DNA of 64,000 bases from an uncultured archaeon (GCA_964558645.1 CAZLEV010000007.1:64001-128000), one strand, 5' to 3'. Numbered from the stretch's first letter, positions 1-8,225 are shown. Numbers and translations are program-made. Notes: generated by a model not told the origin, from the letters alone.

Positions 1-140
1 TCTTCGCCTGTCTGCTCTACCAGCAGACCAATAGCTGACAGGAACGCGCTAACGATTTCATCGAGTTTCTTTGTTCCATAGACGCTGTAGTGGAAAAGTG
101 GAATTCCCGAATCACGCAAAATCACGATCTCTTTGACCAC
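1..140 (-). CDS. Longin-like domain protein, N-terminal part only (runs off the window start); paralog of 219..1133
   Basis: Not in the ORF track. Manual translation from GTG at 140 gives MVKEIVILRDSGIPLFHYSVYGTKKLDEIVSAFLSAIGLLVEQTGE, which aligns with IQEFMVITAGGVPIFHYSPTSIRRLDELLSGFLSAISSFAAEFGE of the neighbouring gene. Confidence 0.8.
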   Translation of the reverse strand, partial: MVKEIVILRDSGIPLFHYSVYGTKKLDEIVSAFLSAIGLLVEQTGE

Positions 141-218
141 TTTGCCACGACCTTAAGCGCTATTGTGTCCCTTGAGCTTTGCCTGCATATAACTGCTATC
201 AGTGGATGAGAGCCGATT

Positions 219-1133
219 CTACTCGATTCCCCAATCATAATCAAGAGTGTTCTGGACTCCCATCAGTTTCCAGTCAACTTCGTCCCCCAGTTTTTCAAGC
301 ACTTCATGCATGCGTTCTGATGTTACTCCAAGTCTTTCCGATATTTCTTCGATTGTTCTCTGCCCATTGCAGAGAGGCTTAGCCCGTTTCAAGAGCTGGT
401 AGTCCTTTCTTGGTAGACCTACCAGGTCGAGATAAGCATCGAAGCGAGAATCATTCTCTTTGAGAAGCGGGCACAGTCTCATTACCTCCAAGACGCCCCA
501 AATCGCCAAGTACTCGATGATTTCCGTTACCTCTTCCTCTTCTATACCAATGCGCACACTGATGGCATTGATCGTTGAACGCCCGTCGATTGCATCAAGA
601 ACACTACTGCCTGTTCCAGCAAAATCCCTATGAAACTCGTCCAAGAGGCCTTCTGAATCGATTGCTGCTTGCAGCACATCTCTCCTGATAATAGGTACCA
701 CAAAAGAGGTAAGACTTGATGTTGTTTTTAGGACTCCTTGATAGAATGTCATGGCACGTCTGACTTCGTACTCAAAGTCTCCGAACTTCTGCGCTATGCA
801 GTTATCGCCATTGAGTTCTGCTCTGTATCTCGTTATGAACTTCCGGCTCAGGTCCTTGAGAACTGCTCTTAGCAGCCTCATCGGAGCTCCCGTGTCTACC
901 AGAAACAGGAATATTTCTTCCTGTTCAGGTTGTTCATAGAGAACTTCGGAACCTTGGAAAGAGAGACTCTGAACAGATTTTTCGCCAAACTCGGCGGCGA
1001 AGCTCGATATGGCGGACAGAAACCCAGACAGCAGTTCATCAAGGCGTCGGATACTCGTGGGGGAGTAGTGGAAGATTGGTACACCGCCTGCGGTAATGAC
1101 CATGAACTCTTGAATCTTCAGTCTGTTTGCCAA
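219..1133 (-). CDS. Longin domain + tandem winged-helix protein (NPRL2/GATOR1-like architecture)
   Basis: N-terminal longin pattern (G(I/V)P(I/L)FHY...L(L)SGFLSAI..F..E). Two C-terminal wHTH-like repeats (AIDGRSTINAISVRIGI..., LCNGQRTIEEISERLGV...). Confidence 0.75.
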   Translation of the reverse strand: MANRLKIQEFMVITAGGVPIFHYSPTSIRRLDELLSGFLSAISSFAAEFGEKSVQSLSFQGSEVLYEQPEQEEIFLFLVDTGAPMRLLRAVLKDLSRKFITRYRAELNGDNCIAQKFGDFEYEVRRAMTFYQGVLKTTSSLTSFVVPIIRRDVLQAAIDSEGLLDEFHRDFAGTGSSVLDAIDGRSTINAISVRIGIEEEEVTEIIEYLAIWGVLEVMRLCPLLKENDSRFDAYLDLVGLPRKDYQLLKRAKPLCNGQRTIEEISERLGVTSERMHEVLEKLGDEVDWKLMGVQNTLDYDWGIE

Positions 1134-1277
1134 TAGCAGGGCACCACTGAGAGGGTTCCAACATATGTGATTTTAAGCTATGGTATTCGTCCCTTCTTGG
1201 ATGTATTGCCGAGAATCGGTAGGAATCGGCTTATTAGACGGGACGCTTGCAAGATATCTCGTTGTTCGGTGAGGAAG

Positions 1278-2882
1278 ATGCTTGAATATCGCCGCTTTCC
1301 GTGGAGGACTACATTCTACTACTTGCTCTATGCACCGGTTCTGTCCTACTTCTTATCGGTCATTGGTCGTCTTATGGATGCAACTCTGTTTTATTTCGAT
1401 TCTGGCCAACACTTGTATCTTCTAGGAATATCTTCAGCATGTGGGGCTCTTGGACTGCTCGCCAGTGCAATGGTAGTTGACAGAACTCGAAAGACCGACT
1501 TACTCATGATAGTAGCATCCCTCTTTCCCTTGGGACTTGGAATGGCGATTTCGATTCTGGGTTCACCAAGTACTCACAGCCCTTCGATTGAATATGCTTT
1601 GGCCGGATCCGTCTTCTTCGGTCTGTGCCTGCTGCTTGTAAGCTGGACCAATCAGCTTAATGAGACCGTGGTTGTTCGATTCAGGGGGCGTATTGCTGCT
1701 TTTTTCCTGTTCCTCTCATTGCTGATTCTGTTTATTTACAATCTTCTCGGCCTAACGGAAGTCATAATCGAGGTCTTTGGAACTCCGTTGATAGAAACCG
1801 TGGCCACAGTATCTGTGTTTATTGCAGCAGCCTTCAGACCGTGGACGTGGGCGCATCATCCGCTCGCCGTGAGGGGTAAGACATCTGGGTACTTCTTCCC
1901 GATGGTTCTAATTCTAGGTGCACACATTCTATGGTACTTCTCGACGAAGAGTAACGTGGCAGCCCTGTTTGAATTCACAGGGGAATCCTGGTCGGGATCT
2001 ATTGCCATCGATTCAGACTGGAGTCTCTACCAACCACTGATGCTCGGTGTGGGTATCATTGTGGCAGGTTTACTTGCAGATACAAAGGGCCGCAAGTCCG
2101 CCTTCAGTTTCGCCGTTCTCTTGATGGGAATGCTTGCCATCTTCGGGTCTGCAACTTATGGCCTGGTTTCTGTTGGCGGGACCACAGAAGTGCTTCTGCG
2201 CTCAGGGACACTCCTCGTTGGAGAGCGATTCGTCGAAGGATATTTTCTGGGGCTTTGTTCTCTCTTGATCTGGGGCGAGATTGGTATGCCCAAGAATCGC
2301 GCTCTGAGACTTTCACTTGTTTGGCTCTTCTTCATTGGCTATATGGCTCTATTCTGGGCTGTTGACCTGCAGGCATTTGGATGGGGAATCCCTGCATGGG
2401 TTACGGAGCTGGGGCGTGAATTTGCAATAGTTCTATCGCTTCTTGGTCTGTACTGGACTGCGAATCTTCCTGAAATCTTGGGACGCGAAATCGAGATGGA
2501 GAAACTCGAACTGGACTTTGATGAAGATCTAGTTGAAGAAACAGTTGAGGCCTTTGTTGAAGCAGATGATTTCGAATCGATAAGAAGCCAACTGGAGATT
2601 ATCGACACTACACCGGACATCAGTGATACTGAGATGTCTGAGATTCTTGGTGAAGATTTCAACGACATTCTTCCCATGCGGAGAATTCCTGGAATCGGGC
2701 CTGCATTAGAAGAGAAGCTCCGAAAGGCAGGTTATGTCTCCGCAGCTCAAATCGCAGGAGAAATCCCATCACGTCTGGCGTCCAAAGTGCAAGGGATGAG
2801 TGAGAAGGGAGCCGACAAAATAATACGGGCTGCAAGAAGCCGTGTCAAGGAAACACTGGACTCTGAGAATCTTACCAAGTGA
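1278..2882 (+). CDS. MFS-like multi-pass membrane protein with acidic linker and C-terminal helix-hairpin-helix domain
   Basis: About 12 hydrophobic segments and MFS loop motifs (VDRTRK, GLLADTKGRK). C-terminal IPGIGPALEEKLRKAGY...VQGMSEKGADKII is HhH-like. ATG 1278 preferred over the track start at 1167. Confidence 0.7.
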   Translation: MLEYRRFPWRTTFYYLLYAPVLSYFLSVIGRLMDATLFYFDSGQHLYLLGISSACGALGLLASAMVVDRTRKTDLLMIVASLFPLGLGMAISILGSPSTHSPSIEYALAGSVFFGLCLLLVSWTNQLNETVVVRFRGRIAAFFLFLSLLILFIYNLLGLTEVIIEVFGTPLIETVATVSVFIAAAFRPWTWAHHPLAVRGKTSGYFFPMVLILGAHILWYFSTKSNVAALFEFTGESWSGSIAIDSDWSLYQPLMLGVGIIVAGLLADTKGRKSAFSFAVLLMGMLAIFGSATYGLVSVGGTTEVLLRSGTLLVGERFVEGYFLGLCSLLIWGEIGMPKNRALRLSLVWLFFIGYMALFWAVDLQAFGWGIPAWVTELGREFAIVLSLLGLYWTANLPEILGREIEMEKLELDFDEDLVEETVEAFVEADDFESIRSQLEIIDTTPDISDTEMSEILGEDFNDILPMRRIPGIGPALEEKLRKAGYVSAAQIAGEIPSRLASKVQGMSEKGADKIIRAARSRVKETLDSENLTK

Positions 2883-2897
2883 TAACACCAGGACAGT

Positions 2898-3752
2898 TCA
2901 TTCAGACTTCGCTAAGAGGTTCTTCTTTGTCCTGACTCCATTCTCCTTTCGATGCGGGGTTCTCAATACGCTGTCATTCCCCTTCTCGATCTCTCGAGCT
3001 TCGTCAATGAGATGCGAGGCTGCACGCACCATCTCATGGGCTGCTGCAACCATCATTAGGTACTTGTTGCGTTCTCTTTCCCGGAAACAGGCATAGGTTG
3101 TTATTGGTGCGACAGCTTCTAAGATGTGAAGGGCTGCGTGTGCTTTGGCTGCGGCGTACGGGTTAGCGAAGCTCGCATGCTCTACCGCATATCCTTTTTT
3201 GAGGATCATACGAGGAAGCTCTACTTCTCCCTTTCTTATTGATTCTAGTGCGCCATCAATCAAATGGTGTGTGGCTCTTATGACGCCTGCTGAGGCCAGC
3301 ACATTGACAATGTGTCCGTTGAAGATCACCATTTCGGTTGCATCGAGAAAGTCTCTGCGCGCACCAATCATCGGGTCCATCGGAATCATGATGAATCCTT
3401 CGTCATCAGGAAGGTCGGCTAGAATCTCTCCGTCTTTTCGGAGGAACGCTCTCTTGCCCGGGGCATCTGTAACCGTAATGCTCGGATAACCTGCCTCTGT
3501 CAGTATCGAGCGGACGGCAGCAGGGCCCGGCAGTGAGGCATTAGGAGTTGCGATCAAGAAGAGGTCTGCCTTTGTCTTCTTTGCCTGCTCTGCGGCATCC
3601 TGACATAGATTCGGTGTCAATTTGGAACCCGTTCCGAAGCTGACCACCTCAATGTCTTCTCTTTCAGCTCTCTCATCCAGAATCAAATCAATGAATGGTA
3701 GGCTCCCAATGCAGCCCAGTTTCACCACTGCTAGTTTCATCTTCTTCACCAT
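2898..3752 (-). CDS. mtd: F420-dependent methylene-H4MPT dehydrogenase
   Basis: KLGCIG...DLILDERAEREDI...GTGSKL, PNASLPGP, DPMIGARRDFLDATEM, NPYAAAKA and REIEKGNDSVLRTPH are Mtd motifs. ATG 3752 preferred (track start 3806). Confidence 0.92.
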   Translation of the reverse strand: MVKKMKLAVVKLGCIGSLPFIDLILDERAEREDIEVVSFGTGSKLTPNLCQDAAEQAKKTKADLFLIATPNASLPGPAAVRSILTEAGYPSITVTDAPGKRAFLRKDGEILADLPDDEGFIMIPMDPMIGARRDFLDATEMVIFNGHIVNVLASAGVIRATHHLIDGALESIRKGEVELPRMILKKGYAVEHASFANPYAAAKAHAALHILEAVAPITTYACFRERERNKYLMMVAAAHEMVRAASHLIDEAREIEKGNDSVLRTPHRKENGVRTKKNLLAKSE

Positions 3753-3802
3753 AAGCAATCCCGTCGTGCGAACACTGGAATAGCAAGCAAAAACGCTTTT
3801 GG

Positions 3803-4738
3803 TCATTCATCTTTGTTGAGTTGGACCTTCGGATAGTATGCTAGACCTGTCCCTCCAAGGATGTCTACCTTGTCCAGTCGTGCACCACACGCAGCACAAT
3901 CAAGTACAATTCTAGAGTCCGCCGAAGCCGTACTACAGCTGTTGCAGAGTAGTTCCACATCTAAGACATTCAAGTTGGCAACATCGATAGACTTCCTGCA
4001 GTGTTGGCATGCTACCTCAAGTAGATCGTCCACTATCACGGTTTGAGTCCTCTTGCCGCAGTGGGGACAGAAGATTTGGTAAACTTTGTAGAGGTCTACA
4101 CTTCCGCAACTGGGGCACGACAGAAGAACATGGATTTCACTCGAGCCGCATTTTCTACACTGAATCTTTCTGCCATACGTCTTGGCCACAATCACGCCAG
4201 CATTCTCAAGATCACTGAGGGTTCGTGACACTTCTTCATCAGAGCCAGAGAGGCGGTGAGAAGCCTCTGGATATACCTCAACTCCCTTCATGACGCTACG
4301 CGGACGCAAGACCTCAATGTGTCCTTCAATCATGTCCTGCAAGAGCGCCCTGACTTCCTTCTGTTGAAGCAAATCATCTCCAGTTGACCGCTCTAGTAGC
4401 TGGTTAAGTCTCGTGAATGCTCTACTTATCTCGGTGTCCCAATCGGTGCTGTTGAAGTCAATCTCTTCAGAGAGTCTCTGCAGGTTTCTCTCAACGAGCT
4501 GTGGTTTATCGTCCCTGTCTAACAGAACTGCTATGCAGTTGGGAGACTGTAACAAGGATATCACAAGTCCCCTATTCAAGTTGCAGTAGCCGATTCTGGC
4601 CTCTTGGTTGACTCCGTGTCCCATGAAGATCGCAACGGCATCCTCACTACTGAGTTCCTGTTCATCAGGGGGATATGCTCGGCCGACCATGGGTCCCAGA
4701 CGGTCGTCCCACCAGATAGAAAACATTGCCTTTGGCAT
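3803..4738 (-). CDS. uDENN/longin-like N-terminus fused to a wHTH + multi-CxxC zinc-binding (TackOD1-like) domain
   Basis: FSIWWDDRLGPMVGRAYP resembles the uDENN/NPRL2 start motif. The C-terminal half has six CxxC pairs after a helix-turn-helix segment (LSDLENAGVI). Confidence 0.6.
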   Translation of the reverse strand: MPKAMFSIWWDDRLGPMVGRAYPPDEQELSSEDAVAIFMGHGVNQEARIGYCNLNRGLVISLLQSPNCIAVLLDRDDKPQLVERNLQRLSEEIDFNSTDWDTEISRAFTRLNQLLERSTGDDLLQQKEVRALLQDMIEGHIEVLRPRSVMKGVEVYPEASHRLSGSDEEVSRTLSDLENAGVIVAKTYGRKIQCRKCGSSEIHVLLSCPSCGSVDLYKVYQIFCPHCGKRTQTVIVDDLLEVACQHCRKSIDVANLNVLDVELLCNSCSTASADSRIVLDCAACGARLDKVDILGGTGLAYYPKVQLNKDE

Positions 4739-4892: not shown

Positions 4893-6632
4893 ATGTTCTC
4901 CAGACAGATAACGAAATCAATTGTACTAATGATGTGCATATGGTTGGCTCTGAGCCCGACGTTTTCCAGAGTACACAATATGAGCAACTCCTTCACTGAG
5001 GCAAACACTGTTCATGAGCTTGCAGAAATCTCGATCGAGGATGTAAAGGACATTGAAATGGAGAATGGTACTCGTGGTGAGAGAATAGTCTGGAATGCAA
5101 CTGCCGAAGAACCGAAGAATTTCACCATTACCAGAGATGGAGATGACTACGATTCGGGGGACTGGGACGGTGGGCTTCTCACGGTGGACTTGGACCATCT
5201 CTATGAACAGAATCTCACTTACTCGTTGAATGTGACATTTACCTTTGTCTGTACGGTATTCAATCAGGCGAATGAATCTGCATCCGATGCCGTTGATGTC
5301 ACTGTTTATCCTGATGAGAGACCACCAATCATAGAGGCGCCTGACGATTTCGAGTACGAAGAGGGGAGTTTTGGTCACGAGATTCGATGGAACATAACTG
5401 AATCAAACCCCGATTTCTACAACATCACGAGGCAATCAAATCAAGATACAGACAATTTCACAATAATCGAGAGTGGTGCCTGGGATGGAAGCAATATCAC
5501 TCTCAATGTTGATGGATTGAATGCATCTTATTGGTATGCCTTCACTCTGTTTGTGAATGATACTCTGGGATTCAACGCCACCAGTACAGTCAACGTCACT
5601 GTGTACCCTGACCTCAGCGATCCCGAGCTGTCCTCGGCTGAGGATGTTACATATGAGTTCGGTGCCAAGGGTAATAGCATATCTTGGTTCGCCTACGATA
5701 GCAACCCTAGCAATCTTTCGCTGACAGTGTATATCCACTACATCAATGAAACATATGGCAATACAACAAATCTGCATACCCCCCAGAACTTCACGGCTGA
5801 TTGGAGCTTCGATAAGCCCAAGGGGGATAACATCACATTCACACTTGACTATCTATACCTAGGCAACTATACATTTGAGTTGACGGTCTTTGACGCTTAT
5901 GGTCGCAACGCCTCTGATTCTGCGAATGTGACTGTCTTTAGGGACTTGCGTGCTCCTATTGTATCTACTAATGACAGCTTTTCCTATGAGGAAGGATTCA
6001 CTGGATATTCTATAGTCTGGTCCGCAGAGGAAAACAACCCAAGACTCTTCAACTTAACTCTAAACGGTTCGGTTCTTCAAGCTGGTGCCTGGGATGGGAA
6101 GAACATAACCACCAGCGCTGACGGATTGTCAGTAGGTTCTCATACATTCAATCTGACACTGGTAGACTATTTCAATCAGACTACGATATCACTTGTTGGT
6201 GTTACAGTCACCCCTGATTCCATTCTTCCTATGGTGAGTCAGCTACAGGTCCTGCAAGCATATGCCTCCCCCGGGATGACCAACATGTCAGTCCAAGCTT
6301 ATGTGTGGGACCTCAATGATGTCAGGAATGTGACTCTTGAATGGGGCACCGACCCCTCAAATCCTGCGAACAAGAGCATGGATCGAATGTCGAATGATTT
6401 CTACTATGCATCAGTGGGCGCTTATCCTGTTGGAACAAAGGTCTGGTATCGTGTGGTAGCCGTGGACAACTCCTCACAGAACAACGCATTCACTACAGAA
6501 TGGACAGTGATCGAGATTCGCGACATACAGAGTCCAAAGACACCTGCGATATTATGGGGAACCATTCTCGCCCTGGGTGTAGTATCAAGCCTGGTCCTGC
6601 TCTCCATCTACTTCAGAACCAAGACTAGATAG
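4893..6632 (+). CDS. Membrane-anchored surface glycoprotein with about 4 Ig-like repeats plus a second Ig-like domain type
   Basis: Signal peptide, repeats of YEEG..G..I.W...E.NP...G.WDG..IT...DGL, many N-x-S/T sequons, C-terminal TM with basic tail. Confidence 0.8.
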   Translation: MFSRQITKSIVLMMCIWLALSPTFSRVHNMSNSFTEANTVHELAEISIEDVKDIEMENGTRGERIVWNATAEEPKNFTITRDGDDYDSGDWDGGLLTVDLDHLYEQNLTYSLNVTFTFVCTVFNQANESASDAVDVTVYPDERPPIIEAPDDFEYEEGSFGHEIRWNITESNPDFYNITRQSNQDTDNFTIIESGAWDGSNITLNVDGLNASYWYAFTLFVNDTLGFNATSTVNVTVYPDLSDPELSSAEDVTYEFGAKGNSISWFAYDSNPSNLSLTVYIHYINETYGNTTNLHTPQNFTADWSFDKPKGDNITFTLDYLYLGNYTFELTVFDAYGRNASDSANVTVFRDLRAPIVSTNDSFSYEEGFTGYSIVWSAEENNPRLFNLTLNGSVLQAGAWDGKNITTSADGLSVGSHTFNLTLVDYFNQTTISLVGVTVTPDSILPMVSQLQVLQAYASPGMTNMSVQAYVWDLNDVRNVTLEWGTDPSNPANKSMDRMSNDFYYASVGAYPVGTKVWYRVVAVDNSSQNNAFTTEWTVIEIRDIQSPKTPAILWGTILALGVVSSLVLLSIYFRTKTR

Positions 6633-7140
6633 AGCCCTTGAGAAGTGATACAACGCGGTTGGGAATCTCGTCCCGGTCTTGATGTGTTATTTCCATTAAG
6701 GTGACATCATCCCTAGAACGAATCTCATCCAAGAACTCTGTGGACTTGTTCTGTATTGTACCTATCATCTTACCTGCATCCAGACAGTTCAGAACTTCAG
6801 TCTTGAACTGCGGGGAGAAGAGCTCCATTTTCGCTATCTCATCGACTATGACAATCTTCTCCTCATTTCGTGCCTGTCTCATTGCAGGTACAGCAATCTC
6901 ACGAACAGCAGTCACGTTAACGGTGTACTTGCTGACTCTTGGTCCGGCTGAGAGCTGGACATGGGCCAGAATGCCTTCGAGTCCATCTATTGTCCGAATC
7001 TTAAATCCGACTCTGTGTCTCCCCTCGCGTATCTCTTCAGACCAGAATCCTCCTGTCCTACTTGGCCCTATCTTGGAAACTATTCGTCGTATGGCAGTTG
7101 TCTTTCCAACCCCTGGTGTTCCTGTGATCAGAATATTCAA
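6625..7140 (-). CDS. Nucleoside triphosphatase (NTPase_1/THEP1 family)
   Basis: ILITGTPGVGKTT Walker A, GGFWSEEIRE...RVGF, IVDEIAKMEL Walker B. Confidence 0.9.
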   Translation of the reverse strand: MNILITGTPGVGKTTAIRRIVSKIGPSRTGGFWSEEIREGRHRVGFKIRTIDGLEGILAHVQLSAGPRVSKYTVNVTAVREIAVPAMRQARNEEKIVIVDEIAKMELFSPQFKTEVLNCLDAGKMIGTIQNKSTEFLDEIRSRDDVTLMEITHQDRDEIPNRVVSLLKGSI

Positions 7141-7184
7141 TCGTACGCCTCACTTTGGGTACTTGAAGCCCGTATCATTGTCTA

Positions 7185-8225
7185 CTAACGATTATAGCAA
7201 CGCATGGCCTTAAGCTTGGCTATTCTTTCGATAGTTAGGCGTTCTTTGTCACTCAGTGGTTCAGCTCGGATAACATTGCCTTGGACAGCTGCATCAAACA
7301 GGTTCTTGCCAGTAGGGGTTCGGACCAACACTGTCGTCAGCGAGTCGTCTGAGCCGATGTTGCCAAAGGAGATGTCGGCATTTACGCAAGTCAAGTCGCG
7401 GCAGAACTCGCAGGAACTCGCTGCTACGGAATCGAGTTTGCCAACAGGCCACTCCTTTTGTTCATCAGCAAGAAGAACTCTGAATTTGCCCTTAGATATC
7501 TCCATCTTCAGAACAGAGCTCATTTCGATCCCTTCGTTCTGTAGGAACCACTTCAAACCACTGTGACTGAATGATTCCATGCAGAAGAGCCCGAGTTTGA
7601 TGATATGAAACTCATCCTGCCTATCAAAGCCTGAAGATCCTCGCTCAAGGTTACATAGCGAATCGATGGCGCAAGAAGTGCCTGTAACCGCAATCTTTGA
7701 AACCCCACTTCGGAGCTCTCGAATCACGTGGCCGATAACAGGAGCATGTGAATACACTGTGCCTGTTGGTATATCTTTAGGATTGGCTATAGTAACTGCT
7801 TGCGGCTTCCAAGGAATATCGGTCATGGAAGACCCGCAGACCACTCTTTCAACCTCTCGTGTTGTAAGTGCATGTTCTAGGAGCGAACTCACAACCCCAC
7901 CGTTCTGACCCTCTTCATGAATGAGTGACTGCGCTTTCCAAGCTTCGATGTAGTTGCCCACCAATCTCTCAGGGAAGACGAAGGTTCGGGGACAGACGGC
8001 ATAGCACAGACCACAGGCGATGCATTTCCCTGTTAGCTTAGGAACGTATCTCTCATCGGTCCATGTTCCTGTGAGCGCATCAACTGGGCATATCGCCACA
8101 CATGCTCCACATTCGGTGCAAACCCCAGTAGATATGATCTCTCTCTCCAGTTTCTTGAAAGCATTCCTTCTATCTGTCGTCTCGAGCCAATTCTGAAGGT
8201 CGTTCCTTGCTTGTTCGAAAACCAC
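7185..8225 (-). CDS. Coenzyme F420 hydrogenase/dehydrogenase beta subunit family (FrhB/FdhB/FpoF-like) with N-terminal 2x[4Fe-4S] domain
   Basis: CTECGACVAICP and CIACGLCYAVCP ferredoxin motifs; GQNGGVVSSL, GLFCMESF, CEFCRD, ADISFGNIGS. GTG 8225 is preceded by GGAGG (track start 8249). Confidence 0.88.
   Translation of the reverse strand: MVFEQARNDLQNWLETTDRRNAFKKLEREIISTGVCTECGACVAICPVDALTGTWTDERYVPKLTGKCIACGLCYAVCPRTFVFPERLVGNYIEAWKAQSLIHEEGQNGGVVSSLLEHALTTREVERVVCGSSMTDIPWKPQAVTIANPKDIPTGTVYSHAPVIGHVIRELRSGVSKIAVTGTSCAIDSLCNLERGSSGFDRQDEFHIIKLGLFCMESFSHSGLKWFLQNEGIEMSSVLKMEISKGKFRVLLADEQKEWPVGKLDSVAASSCEFCRDLTCVNADISFGNIGSDDSLTTVLVRTPTGKNLFDAAVQGNVIRAEPLSDKERLTIERIAKLKAMRCYNR

Follow-up and report, generated by a model that had tools for sequence, protein, structure and literature searches.

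A tandem pair of NPRL2-like longin proteins encoded beside a ParA/MinD-type ATPase in Thorarchaeota

'Eukaryotic signature proteins' of Asgard archaea are usually read via their eukaryotic namesakes, and NPRL2-like proteins have been taken as a hint of a proto-mTORC1/Rag pathway. Which partner such proteins have in an archaeon is the question raised by two genes, here called A and B, at the left edge of a 64,000-nt stretch of archaeal DNA (G000:C7:64001-128000, the window). The genome has a size of 3.6 Mb and is 93% complete. Named homologues are all from Thorarchaeota-type Asgard metagenome-assembled genomes (MAGs). An earlier note, made from the sequence of the window, had described A and B as tandem longin paralogues and proposed a proto-GATOR1-like heterodimer, a class of proteins acting as GTPase-activating protein (GAP) or guanine nucleotide exchange factor (GEF) for small GTPases. 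The gene context points elsewhere, to a ParA/MinD-type ATPase. Both open reading frames (ORFs) had been placed correctly in the note, one of them cut by the window edge, and the complete gene B was recovered from the contig. The arrangement is as follows.

Window 219-1133, minus strand: gene A, 304 aa, TTG start; longin domain at residues 1-110, helical linker, winged helices at 163-224 and 225-292; NPRL2-like architecture
Window 141-218: spacer of 78 nt between A and B; both genes on the same strand, B downstream of A
Window 1-140 (ORF 3-140, GTG at 140), minus strand: N-terminal 46 codons of gene B, which continues left of the window
Contig C7:62854-64140, minus strand: complete gene B, 428 aa; longin domain 1-128, roadblock domain 137-256, two winged helices 299-420
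Contig C7:62092-62850, minus strand: ParA/MinD-type ATPase, 252 aa, downstream of B

The gap between the stop codon of B and the start of the ParA gene is 3 nt in this genome. Conservation of the arrangement was scored by tblastn in 63 orthologous loci from species-representative genomes, 55 of which contained enough downstream sequence to be informative. A ParA-type ATPase was detected downstream of A/B in 54 of these 55 Thorarchaeota loci; in the remaining one, no ParA was found within 4.6 kb. A, B, and ParA are contiguous in 42 loci and separated by insertions in three, and in nine loci A and ParA are present without B. By this linkage, A, B, and the ParA-type ATPase form an operon. The conserved pairing of A and B that the earlier note expected was seen in most loci, the two genes being adjacent in 46 of 55, but it is not general, as shown by the nine A-only loci and by a second family, f12, with B only. 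In three of the A-only genomes, one of them a complete chromosome, whole-genome searches revealed no B anywhere. Because A-only and B-only lineages exist, a heterodimer is probably not obligatory.

The ATPase is the most conserved protein of the cluster. Mean identity within Thorarchaeota is 81% for ParA (77-97%), 58% for A, 50% for B, and 60% and 48%, respectively, for two metabolic enzymes encoded nearby, a tungsten-type aldehyde:ferredoxin oxidoreductase (AFOR) and methylene-tetrahydromethanopterin dehydrogenase (MTD). The Walker A motif of the ATPase, S-F-R-G-G-T-G-K-S, is invariant in 51 Thorarchaeota species and aligns to G-K-G-G-T-G-K-T of Archaeoglobus fulgidus MinD-1; the signature Lys is thus replaced by Arg (R14). 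The sequence D-T-H-P-G-L-D following the Walker B Asp is also invariant. With the NCBIfam model for archaeal MinD the protein scored 94 bits at a cut-off of 202, and a weak PADLOC match to PDC-M28B was obtained (2.1e-8).

Orthologues of this ParA with 50-57% identity are present in MAGs labelled Hod-, Hel-, and Promethearchaeota. On two such contigs, the gene preceding parA encodes a protein of 422 aa that is orthologous to B over its full length (hhalign probability 100, E 6e-63, 420 columns), and a helix-hairpin-helix (HhH) membrane protein, described below for the window, is encoded divergently upstream. Among 301 genomes of the phylum, full-length B orthologues were detected in the Thorarchaeota family f1, in the single genome of family f2, and in 18 out of 19 genomes of family f12; elsewhere, only weak single-domain matches were obtained. 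In the f12 and f2 loci, B is followed by a ParA with the motif HS[FY]RGGTGKSN in 18 out of 18 cases and the HhH membrane protein is divergent upstream in 15; A was not found in any of these 18 loci. Over the three Asgard families, 72 of 73 loci have A and/or B coupled to an Arg-variant ParA, and no small GTPase gene was found in the 73 conserved neighbourhoods examined. The context does not support the GATOR1-like pathway that had been proposed, since the constant partner is a ParA/MinD-type ATPase. From its constant adjacency, ParA is a likelier partner of A and B than a Rag-type GTPase.

In a quick, midpoint-rooted maximum-likelihood tree, A formed one clade and the B proteins of Thorarchaeota and f12 the other, with an SH-aLRT (Shimodaira-Hasegawa-like approximate likelihood ratio test) value of 92 at the key branch and with the A-only genomes nested in the A clade. 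This topology suggests, although we hold it loosely, an early split between A and B and a secondary loss of B in one sublineage of Thorarchaeota. Coupling to longin proteins is not universal for this ParA subfamily, because the neighbours differ for one Helarchaeota-labelled orthologue (L077): next to it are genes for a TPR protein and for small unknown proteins, among which no longin domain was detectable by Pfam. For distant relatives in other Asgard MAGs (P0264, P0265), which are on short contigs only, no ParA was found nearby.

The relationship between A and B, recognised in the earlier note at their longin-type N-termini, extends to the C-termini as well. The N-terminal 128 residues share 27% identity (BLASTP, E 5e-18) and the C-terminal 130 residues 32% (E 5e-23); about 125 residues in the middle of B are absent from A. 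As both ends are aligned, the paralogy is far beyond chance. The AlphaFold2 model of A, based on an alignment of 41 sequences, reached a mean predicted local distance difference test (pLDDT) value of 82 and a predicted template modelling score (pTM) of 0.80. It consists of a beta-beta-alpha-beta-beta-beta-alpha longin domain (residues 7-108), a helical linker with one strand, and two winged-helix units modelled at pLDDT of about 90, the first preceded by a helix at 163-181 and the second by helices at 229-254. The model of B (pLDDT 79) follows the same plan with an inserted roadblock domain.

Foldseek comparisons of these models agree with the NPRL2-like arrangement of longin domain and winged helices that had been suggested for A. 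All 12 best PDB matches of A are supplied by GATOR1/SEACIT entries, in chains of NPRL2/NPRL3 size. Chains were assigned by entry title and length, and NPRL2 was confirmed by sequence search in 6ces, 7t3a, 7t3b, 9v0j, 8fw5, 9o5a, and 9o5d. Alignments to the NPRL2/NPRL3-sized chains are full-length with template modelling (TM) scores of 0.22-0.29. A eukaryotic NPR2 cluster was the sole listed eukaryotic match extending well into the winged-helix region of A (TM 0.42, residues 1-275). For B, tri-longin RabGEFs rank first, namely Fuzzy-Inturned, Mon1-Ccz1, and BLOC-3 (E 5e-9 to 1e-6), followed by NPRL2/NPRL3-sized GATOR1 chains with 470-510 columns and E values from 1.5e-6. The roadblock domain of B structurally resembles the C-terminal domain of RagA and MglB. 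According to the models, A and B are paralogous longin and tandem winged-helix proteins with a layout in common with NPRL2/NPRL3. The winged helices of A are acidic (net charge -4.9 and -3.2; pI of the protein 4.8). Across the A family both are net negative, including the putative recognition helix (-3.4). The second winged helix of B is mildly basic (+1.0), with a pI of 9.1 for its third helix.

At the sequence level, the picture is less clear. The earlier note had pointed to a stretch of NPRL2 as closely resembling part of A. A family profile indeed aligned to exactly that part of human NPRL2, the first winged helix (HMMER; 6ces_N residues 187-238), and did so co-linearly, but the match was not significant in searches of PDB sequences (E 0.41 for the full-length profile, E 0.079 for a C-terminal profile of A and B) and ranked alongside archaeal Lrp/MarR winged helices. 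A second co-linear piece, NPRL2 346-369, was also insignificant. Single-sequence and profile searches gave no significant PDB sequence match for A or B. The resemblance to NPRL2 is therefore convincing only at the level of predicted structure.

Profile collections gave a similar result. A check against NPR2/NPR3 profiles, as proposed in the earlier note, was made here with Pfam and was negative: neither Pfam NPR2 (PF06218) nor NPR3 (PF03666) matched A or B even at E <= 1, or any member of the A family, and a six-frame search of the whole genome yielded no match either, although prokaryotic controls cannot match these families. Pfam longin matches for this A were sub-threshold only, and HTH_NPRL3 remained below cut-off (18.4 versus 27.2 bits); of the 41 members of the A family, 27 matched Fuz_longin_1 at E <= 0.01 and three matched HTH_NPRL3. 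Other sub- to near-threshold matches of A and B were to TrmB, HTH_47, IclR, and MarR, with HTH_47 in B at 34.4 bits versus a cut-off of 27.1. NCBIfam contained no family for A and for B only TrmB at 15.6 bits. No PADLOC match was obtained for A, B, the HhH membrane protein, or the TackOD1 protein encoded nearby. A search of a language-model atlas returned Asgard 'hypothetical protein' clusters only, and one source labels a homologue as 'Lrp family transcriptional regulator'. The third subunit of GATOR1, DEPDC5/Iml1, had no Pfam IML1 match in the 93% complete genome; no control genome matched either, so that this search was without positive control.

Weaker relatives of A are encoded in the same genome: a 204-aa stand-alone longin protein (E 1.1e-8) and an ORF of 319 aa in which the match is confined to the winged-helix half (5.7e-5). 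Longin-like stretches were also seen inside two very long ORFs of 1,879 and 1,596 aa. The coordinates of the weak relatives are C12:52506-52865, C2:2088-2429, C8:25612-25926, and C8:109123-109257.

An 'NPRL2-like' family present in most Thorarchaeota was described by Liu et al. (bioRxiv 10.1101/2020.10.19.343400; Nature 2021), and the asCOG label 'NPRL2-like longin domain' is in use in later work. The distribution given by Liu et al. matches the one found here for A/B and, judged from the description, A and B are almost certainly members of this family. The idea of an NPRL2-like protein is thus already published, and this core claim of the earlier note is not new. The accessible text of Liu et al. 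does not mention a tandem A/B pair, the roadblock insert of B, or a ParA/MinD neighbour ('MinD' occurs 0 times).

The ATPase leads to a second line of literature. A preprint of October 2026 (bioRxiv 10.64898/2026.10.19.760177) defines a 'ConB2' assemblage of ParA proteins in which Arg replaces the Walker A Lys. It also describes a mainly archaeal 'ParA-wHTH system' consisting of ParA and one or more genes for a winged helix (winged helix-turn-helix, wHTH) behind a long helix. In some cases, a V4R or a profilin/longin-like domain is fused to the winged helix; a role in immunity is predicted there. The locus in Thorarchaeota has the same composition, an Arg-variant ParA directly downstream of the genes A and B for proteins with long helix, winged helix, and longin domain. 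A PG motif downstream of sensor-1 is a further feature of ParA-wHTH systems. Here, it may correspond to the invariant D-T-H-P-G-L-D. The main text of the preprint names no Asgard example. In these genomes, the published NPRL2-like proteins and the ParA-wHTH module of the ConB2 type appear as a single conserved module, and it is this union of two literature threads that is added here.

Comparison with eukaryotic and prokaryotic systems revealed common features and differences. NPRL2/NPRL3 of GATOR1/SEACIT (Npr2/Npr3 in yeast) likewise have an N-terminal longin domain followed by winged helices, and they are likewise two unequal paralogues, the longer one with an extra domain in the middle. They differ in that the partner of A/B in the genome is a ParA/MinD ATPase and not a Rag GTPase, in that lineages with a single paralogue exist, and in that no DEPDC5/Iml1 match was obtained. 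In comparison with the tri-longin RabGEFs (Mon1/Ccz1, Fuzzy/Inturned, HPS1/HPS4), B has two longin/roadblock domains and A one, and two winged helices replace the third. MglA/MglB differ in that the client of MglB is a Ras-like GTPase. MinD/MinE and ParA/ParB differ in their regulators, since the folds of MinE and ParB are unrelated to longin/roadblock.

Longin and roadblock platforms dock on switch proteins in a number of systems, such as MglB-MglA, Ragulator-Rag, SRX-SRbeta, Mon1-Ccz1-Rab7, and GATOR1-RagA. For ParA/MinD ATPases, no regulator of the longin or roadblock type is, to our knowledge, experimentally established. The ATPase is the only switch protein co-inherited with A and B and is therefore proposed as their client. 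In this proposal, the longin domains, in B together with the roadblock domain, would dimerise into a platform that docks on a nucleotide switch protein. The dimer would be formed by A with B where both exist and would be a homodimer where there is only one of them. The switch protein would be the ATP-bound ParA/MinD dimer, and the platform could set either the rate of ATP hydrolysis or the recruitment and site of action of the ATPase, similar to the action of MinE on MinD and ParB on ParA, or of MglB and GATOR1 on their GTPases. Protein binding would be the task of the mostly acidic winged helices, as it is in NPRL2/NPRL3, and the acidic character of those in A favours this role; the tail on the cytoplasmic side of the HhH membrane protein is a candidate target. 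A module of this kind would have a fixed place on the chromosome and would act in positioning or signalling, not as a GAP for Rag GTPases.

That A and B are a dimeric regulator or adaptor of the ParA/MinD-type ATPase is a reading drawn from gene linkage, in which we place about as much trust as doubt. Several points weigh against it. Gene linkage is the sole support for contacts between A and B, A and ParA, or B and ParA. Small GTPases are encoded elsewhere in the genome, as indicated by nine weak matches to the Gtr1_RagA model (best 34 bits), none of them in the contig region of the module. As longin/roadblock platforms regulate small GTPases and the genome has several, a GTPase client in trans is possible. 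DNA binding by B is possible as well, because its second winged helix is mildly basic. Finally, the likeness to the C-terminal parts of NPRL2/NPRL3 is taken from the full-length Foldseek alignments with their low TM-scores (0.22-0.29).

A wider version of the regulator proposal, which must be regarded as speculative, sees the longin(-roadblock) dimer as the cognate regulator of hydrolysis or recruitment for a SIMIBI-class ParA/MinD ATPase and the module, composed of HhH membrane protein, one or two longin and winged-helix proteins, and Arg-variant ParA, as the prokaryotic state that was later re-used as the NPRL2/NPRL3 scaffold for Rag GTPases. If the coupling is physical, longin/roadblock platforms would have served SIMIBI ATPases as regulators first and Rag GTPases later, and the label 'NPRL2-like' would denote an architecture, not a pathway. 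With three or four proteins, the system is compact and could be expressed and assayed in vitro.

The regulator proposal has to be weighed against the one made originally, namely that A and B are a proto-GATOR1 longin heterodimer acting as GAP or GEF on a Rag-, Arf-, or Rab-like GTPase encoded elsewhere, ParA being separate. The structural matches are in line with it: the best ones of A are NPRL2/NPRL3-sized GATOR1/SEACIT chains, B matches the RabGEFs Mon1-Ccz1, Fuzzy-Inturned, and BLOC-3, the roadblock domain of B matches RagA and MglB, and small GTPases are available in the genome. Motifs expected for GAP activity gave a mixed picture. Their positions were judged by sequence and predicted secondary structure. 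Arg78 of NPRL2 lies, as we take it, in the beta4-beta5 loop. In the search for an arginine finger suggested in the earlier note, no conserved Arg or Lys was seen in this loop of A; B has [KR]63-K64-G65-D66 there and, where beta1 ends, R9 in 39 of 42 sequences. Candidates for the Arg78 position are R9 and [KR]63-K64 in B and R29 in A. GAP longins have a 'GP motif' at the beta1-beta2 turn (PMC12290439). Near this site, both paralogues contain G-x-P. In A, G17 and P19 are invariant and G16 is invariant or nearly so, and the F21-H22 that come next are also invariant; B has an invariant G12, a nearly invariant I13, and P14 in 29 of 42 sequences. On the other side stand the complete lack of small GTPase genes in the 73 neighbourhoods, the missing Pfam matches to IML1/DEPDC5, NPR2, and NPR3 in the genome, the beta4-beta5 loop, without a basic residue in A and with only [KR]63-K64 in B, and the single-paralogue lineages. 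In addition, the small-GTPase matches fall in ORFs of 175-233 aa, too short for a Rag-type C-terminal roadblock domain, or in much longer ORFs. Taken together, a proto-GATOR1 function of the pair appears unlikely, but it is the alternative to be taken most seriously.

Membership in the ParA-wHTH group raises another possibility, namely that the locus is an immune system against mobile elements in which invading DNA would be recognised and coated by winged helices and ParA. In favour are the Arg of the ATPase, the hallmark of ConB2, its invariant H-P-G after the Walker B Asp, and its weak PADLOC match to PDC-M28B, and the partner genes encode a long helix, winged helices, and a longin-type domain, in line with the preprint's description of certain archaeal systems. 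The wHTH proteins are called 'rapidly evolving' in that description, whereas the genes studied here are syntenic (54 of 55 Thorarchaeota loci, 18 of 18 in f12/f2) and apparently inherited vertically. A and B diverge about as much as the neighbouring enzymes, A (58%) resembling AFOR (60%) and B (50%) resembling MTD (48%), so that rapid evolution of the immune type was not observed. The chromosomal position is fixed in 54 of 55 Thorarchaeota species, with TackOD1, MTD, the HhH membrane protein, GNAT, and AFOR genes as neighbours, the tree is consistent with mainly vertical descent, and the ATPase is 77-97% identical across the phylum. There is no effector gene at the locus, A and B have no PADLOC match, and the winged helices of A are acidic. 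Immunity is thus an improbable function of this module.

That A and B are transcription factors for neighbouring genes, with the longin domain as sensor of a ligand or partner and the wHTH as output, is just as improbable: the TrmB, HTH_47, IclR, and MarR matches (HTH_47 in B even above cut-off), the Lrp label of one homologue, and the mildly basic second winged helix of B would fit, but both winged helices of the A family are net negative, as is the putative recognition helix, such winged helices make protein contacts in the best full-length structural relatives, and strict coupling to an ATPase in near-overlapping genes is atypical of a simple regulator.

The genes around the module are the following.

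Contig C7:61570-62049, minus strand: GNAT acetyltransferase, 42 nt downstream of the ParA-type ATPase, left of the window
Window 1167-2882, plus strand: HhH membrane protein, 571 aa as listed, divergent from A; Pfam HHH_5 6.4e-10, residues 505-557
Window 2898-3806, minus strand: MTD; Pfam 1.1e-91
Window 3803-4738, minus strand: TackOD1-domain zinc-ribbon protein, 311 aa, upstream of the module; Pfam TackOD1 1.8e-16
Window 4893-6632, plus strand: predicted surface protein, 579 aa

In 48 of 51 Thorarchaeota loci, the gene for the HhH membrane protein lies next to the module in divergent orientation. Besides the ATPase, most loci carry a membrane protein with an HhH domain of the DNA-binding type. 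The protein is polytopic, with an acidic cytoplasmic linker of about 60 aa (pI 4.05) and a basic C-terminal HhH domain (pI 9.99) resembling the N-terminal HhH of RadA (NCBIfam PRK04301, 4.6e-7). Its true start is probably the ATG at 1278, which results in a divergent intergenic region of 144 nt (window 1134-1277). The GNAT acetyltransferase is kept downstream of ParA in 43 Thorarchaeota loci, but not in the loci of family f12, and may represent a fourth operon gene that is specific to this lineage. A TackOD1 gene is located upstream of the module in all 44 Thorarchaeota loci with enough sequence, and in family f12 it is not beside the module.

The TackOD1 protein contains several CxxC zinc ribbons, and its N-terminal part of about 130 residues matches no Pfam family. 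A comparison of these 130 residues with the A family by hhalign was negative (probability 0.2). Between the MTD gene and the stop of the TackOD1 gene there is an overlap of 4 nt. MTD is located between the TackOD1 gene and the membrane protein gene in only about 36 related loci and therefore looks like a variable passenger in the cluster.

On the other side of the module, C7:56004-61561 (L002 2004-5383, minus strand; 5729-7561, plus strand) encodes a 799-aa glycyl-radical enzyme and an activase, divergent from AFOR. A gene for a 276-aa protein (L002 1181-2011) is located just downstream of the range for glycyl-radical enzyme and activase. To the right of the module, AFOR is a conserved neighbour in Thorarchaeota, as seen in 38 loci. 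The predicted surface protein of 579 aa begins with a signal-like sequence, contains dozens of N-x-S/T sequons within repeated units of about 90 aa, and ends in a transmembrane anchor.

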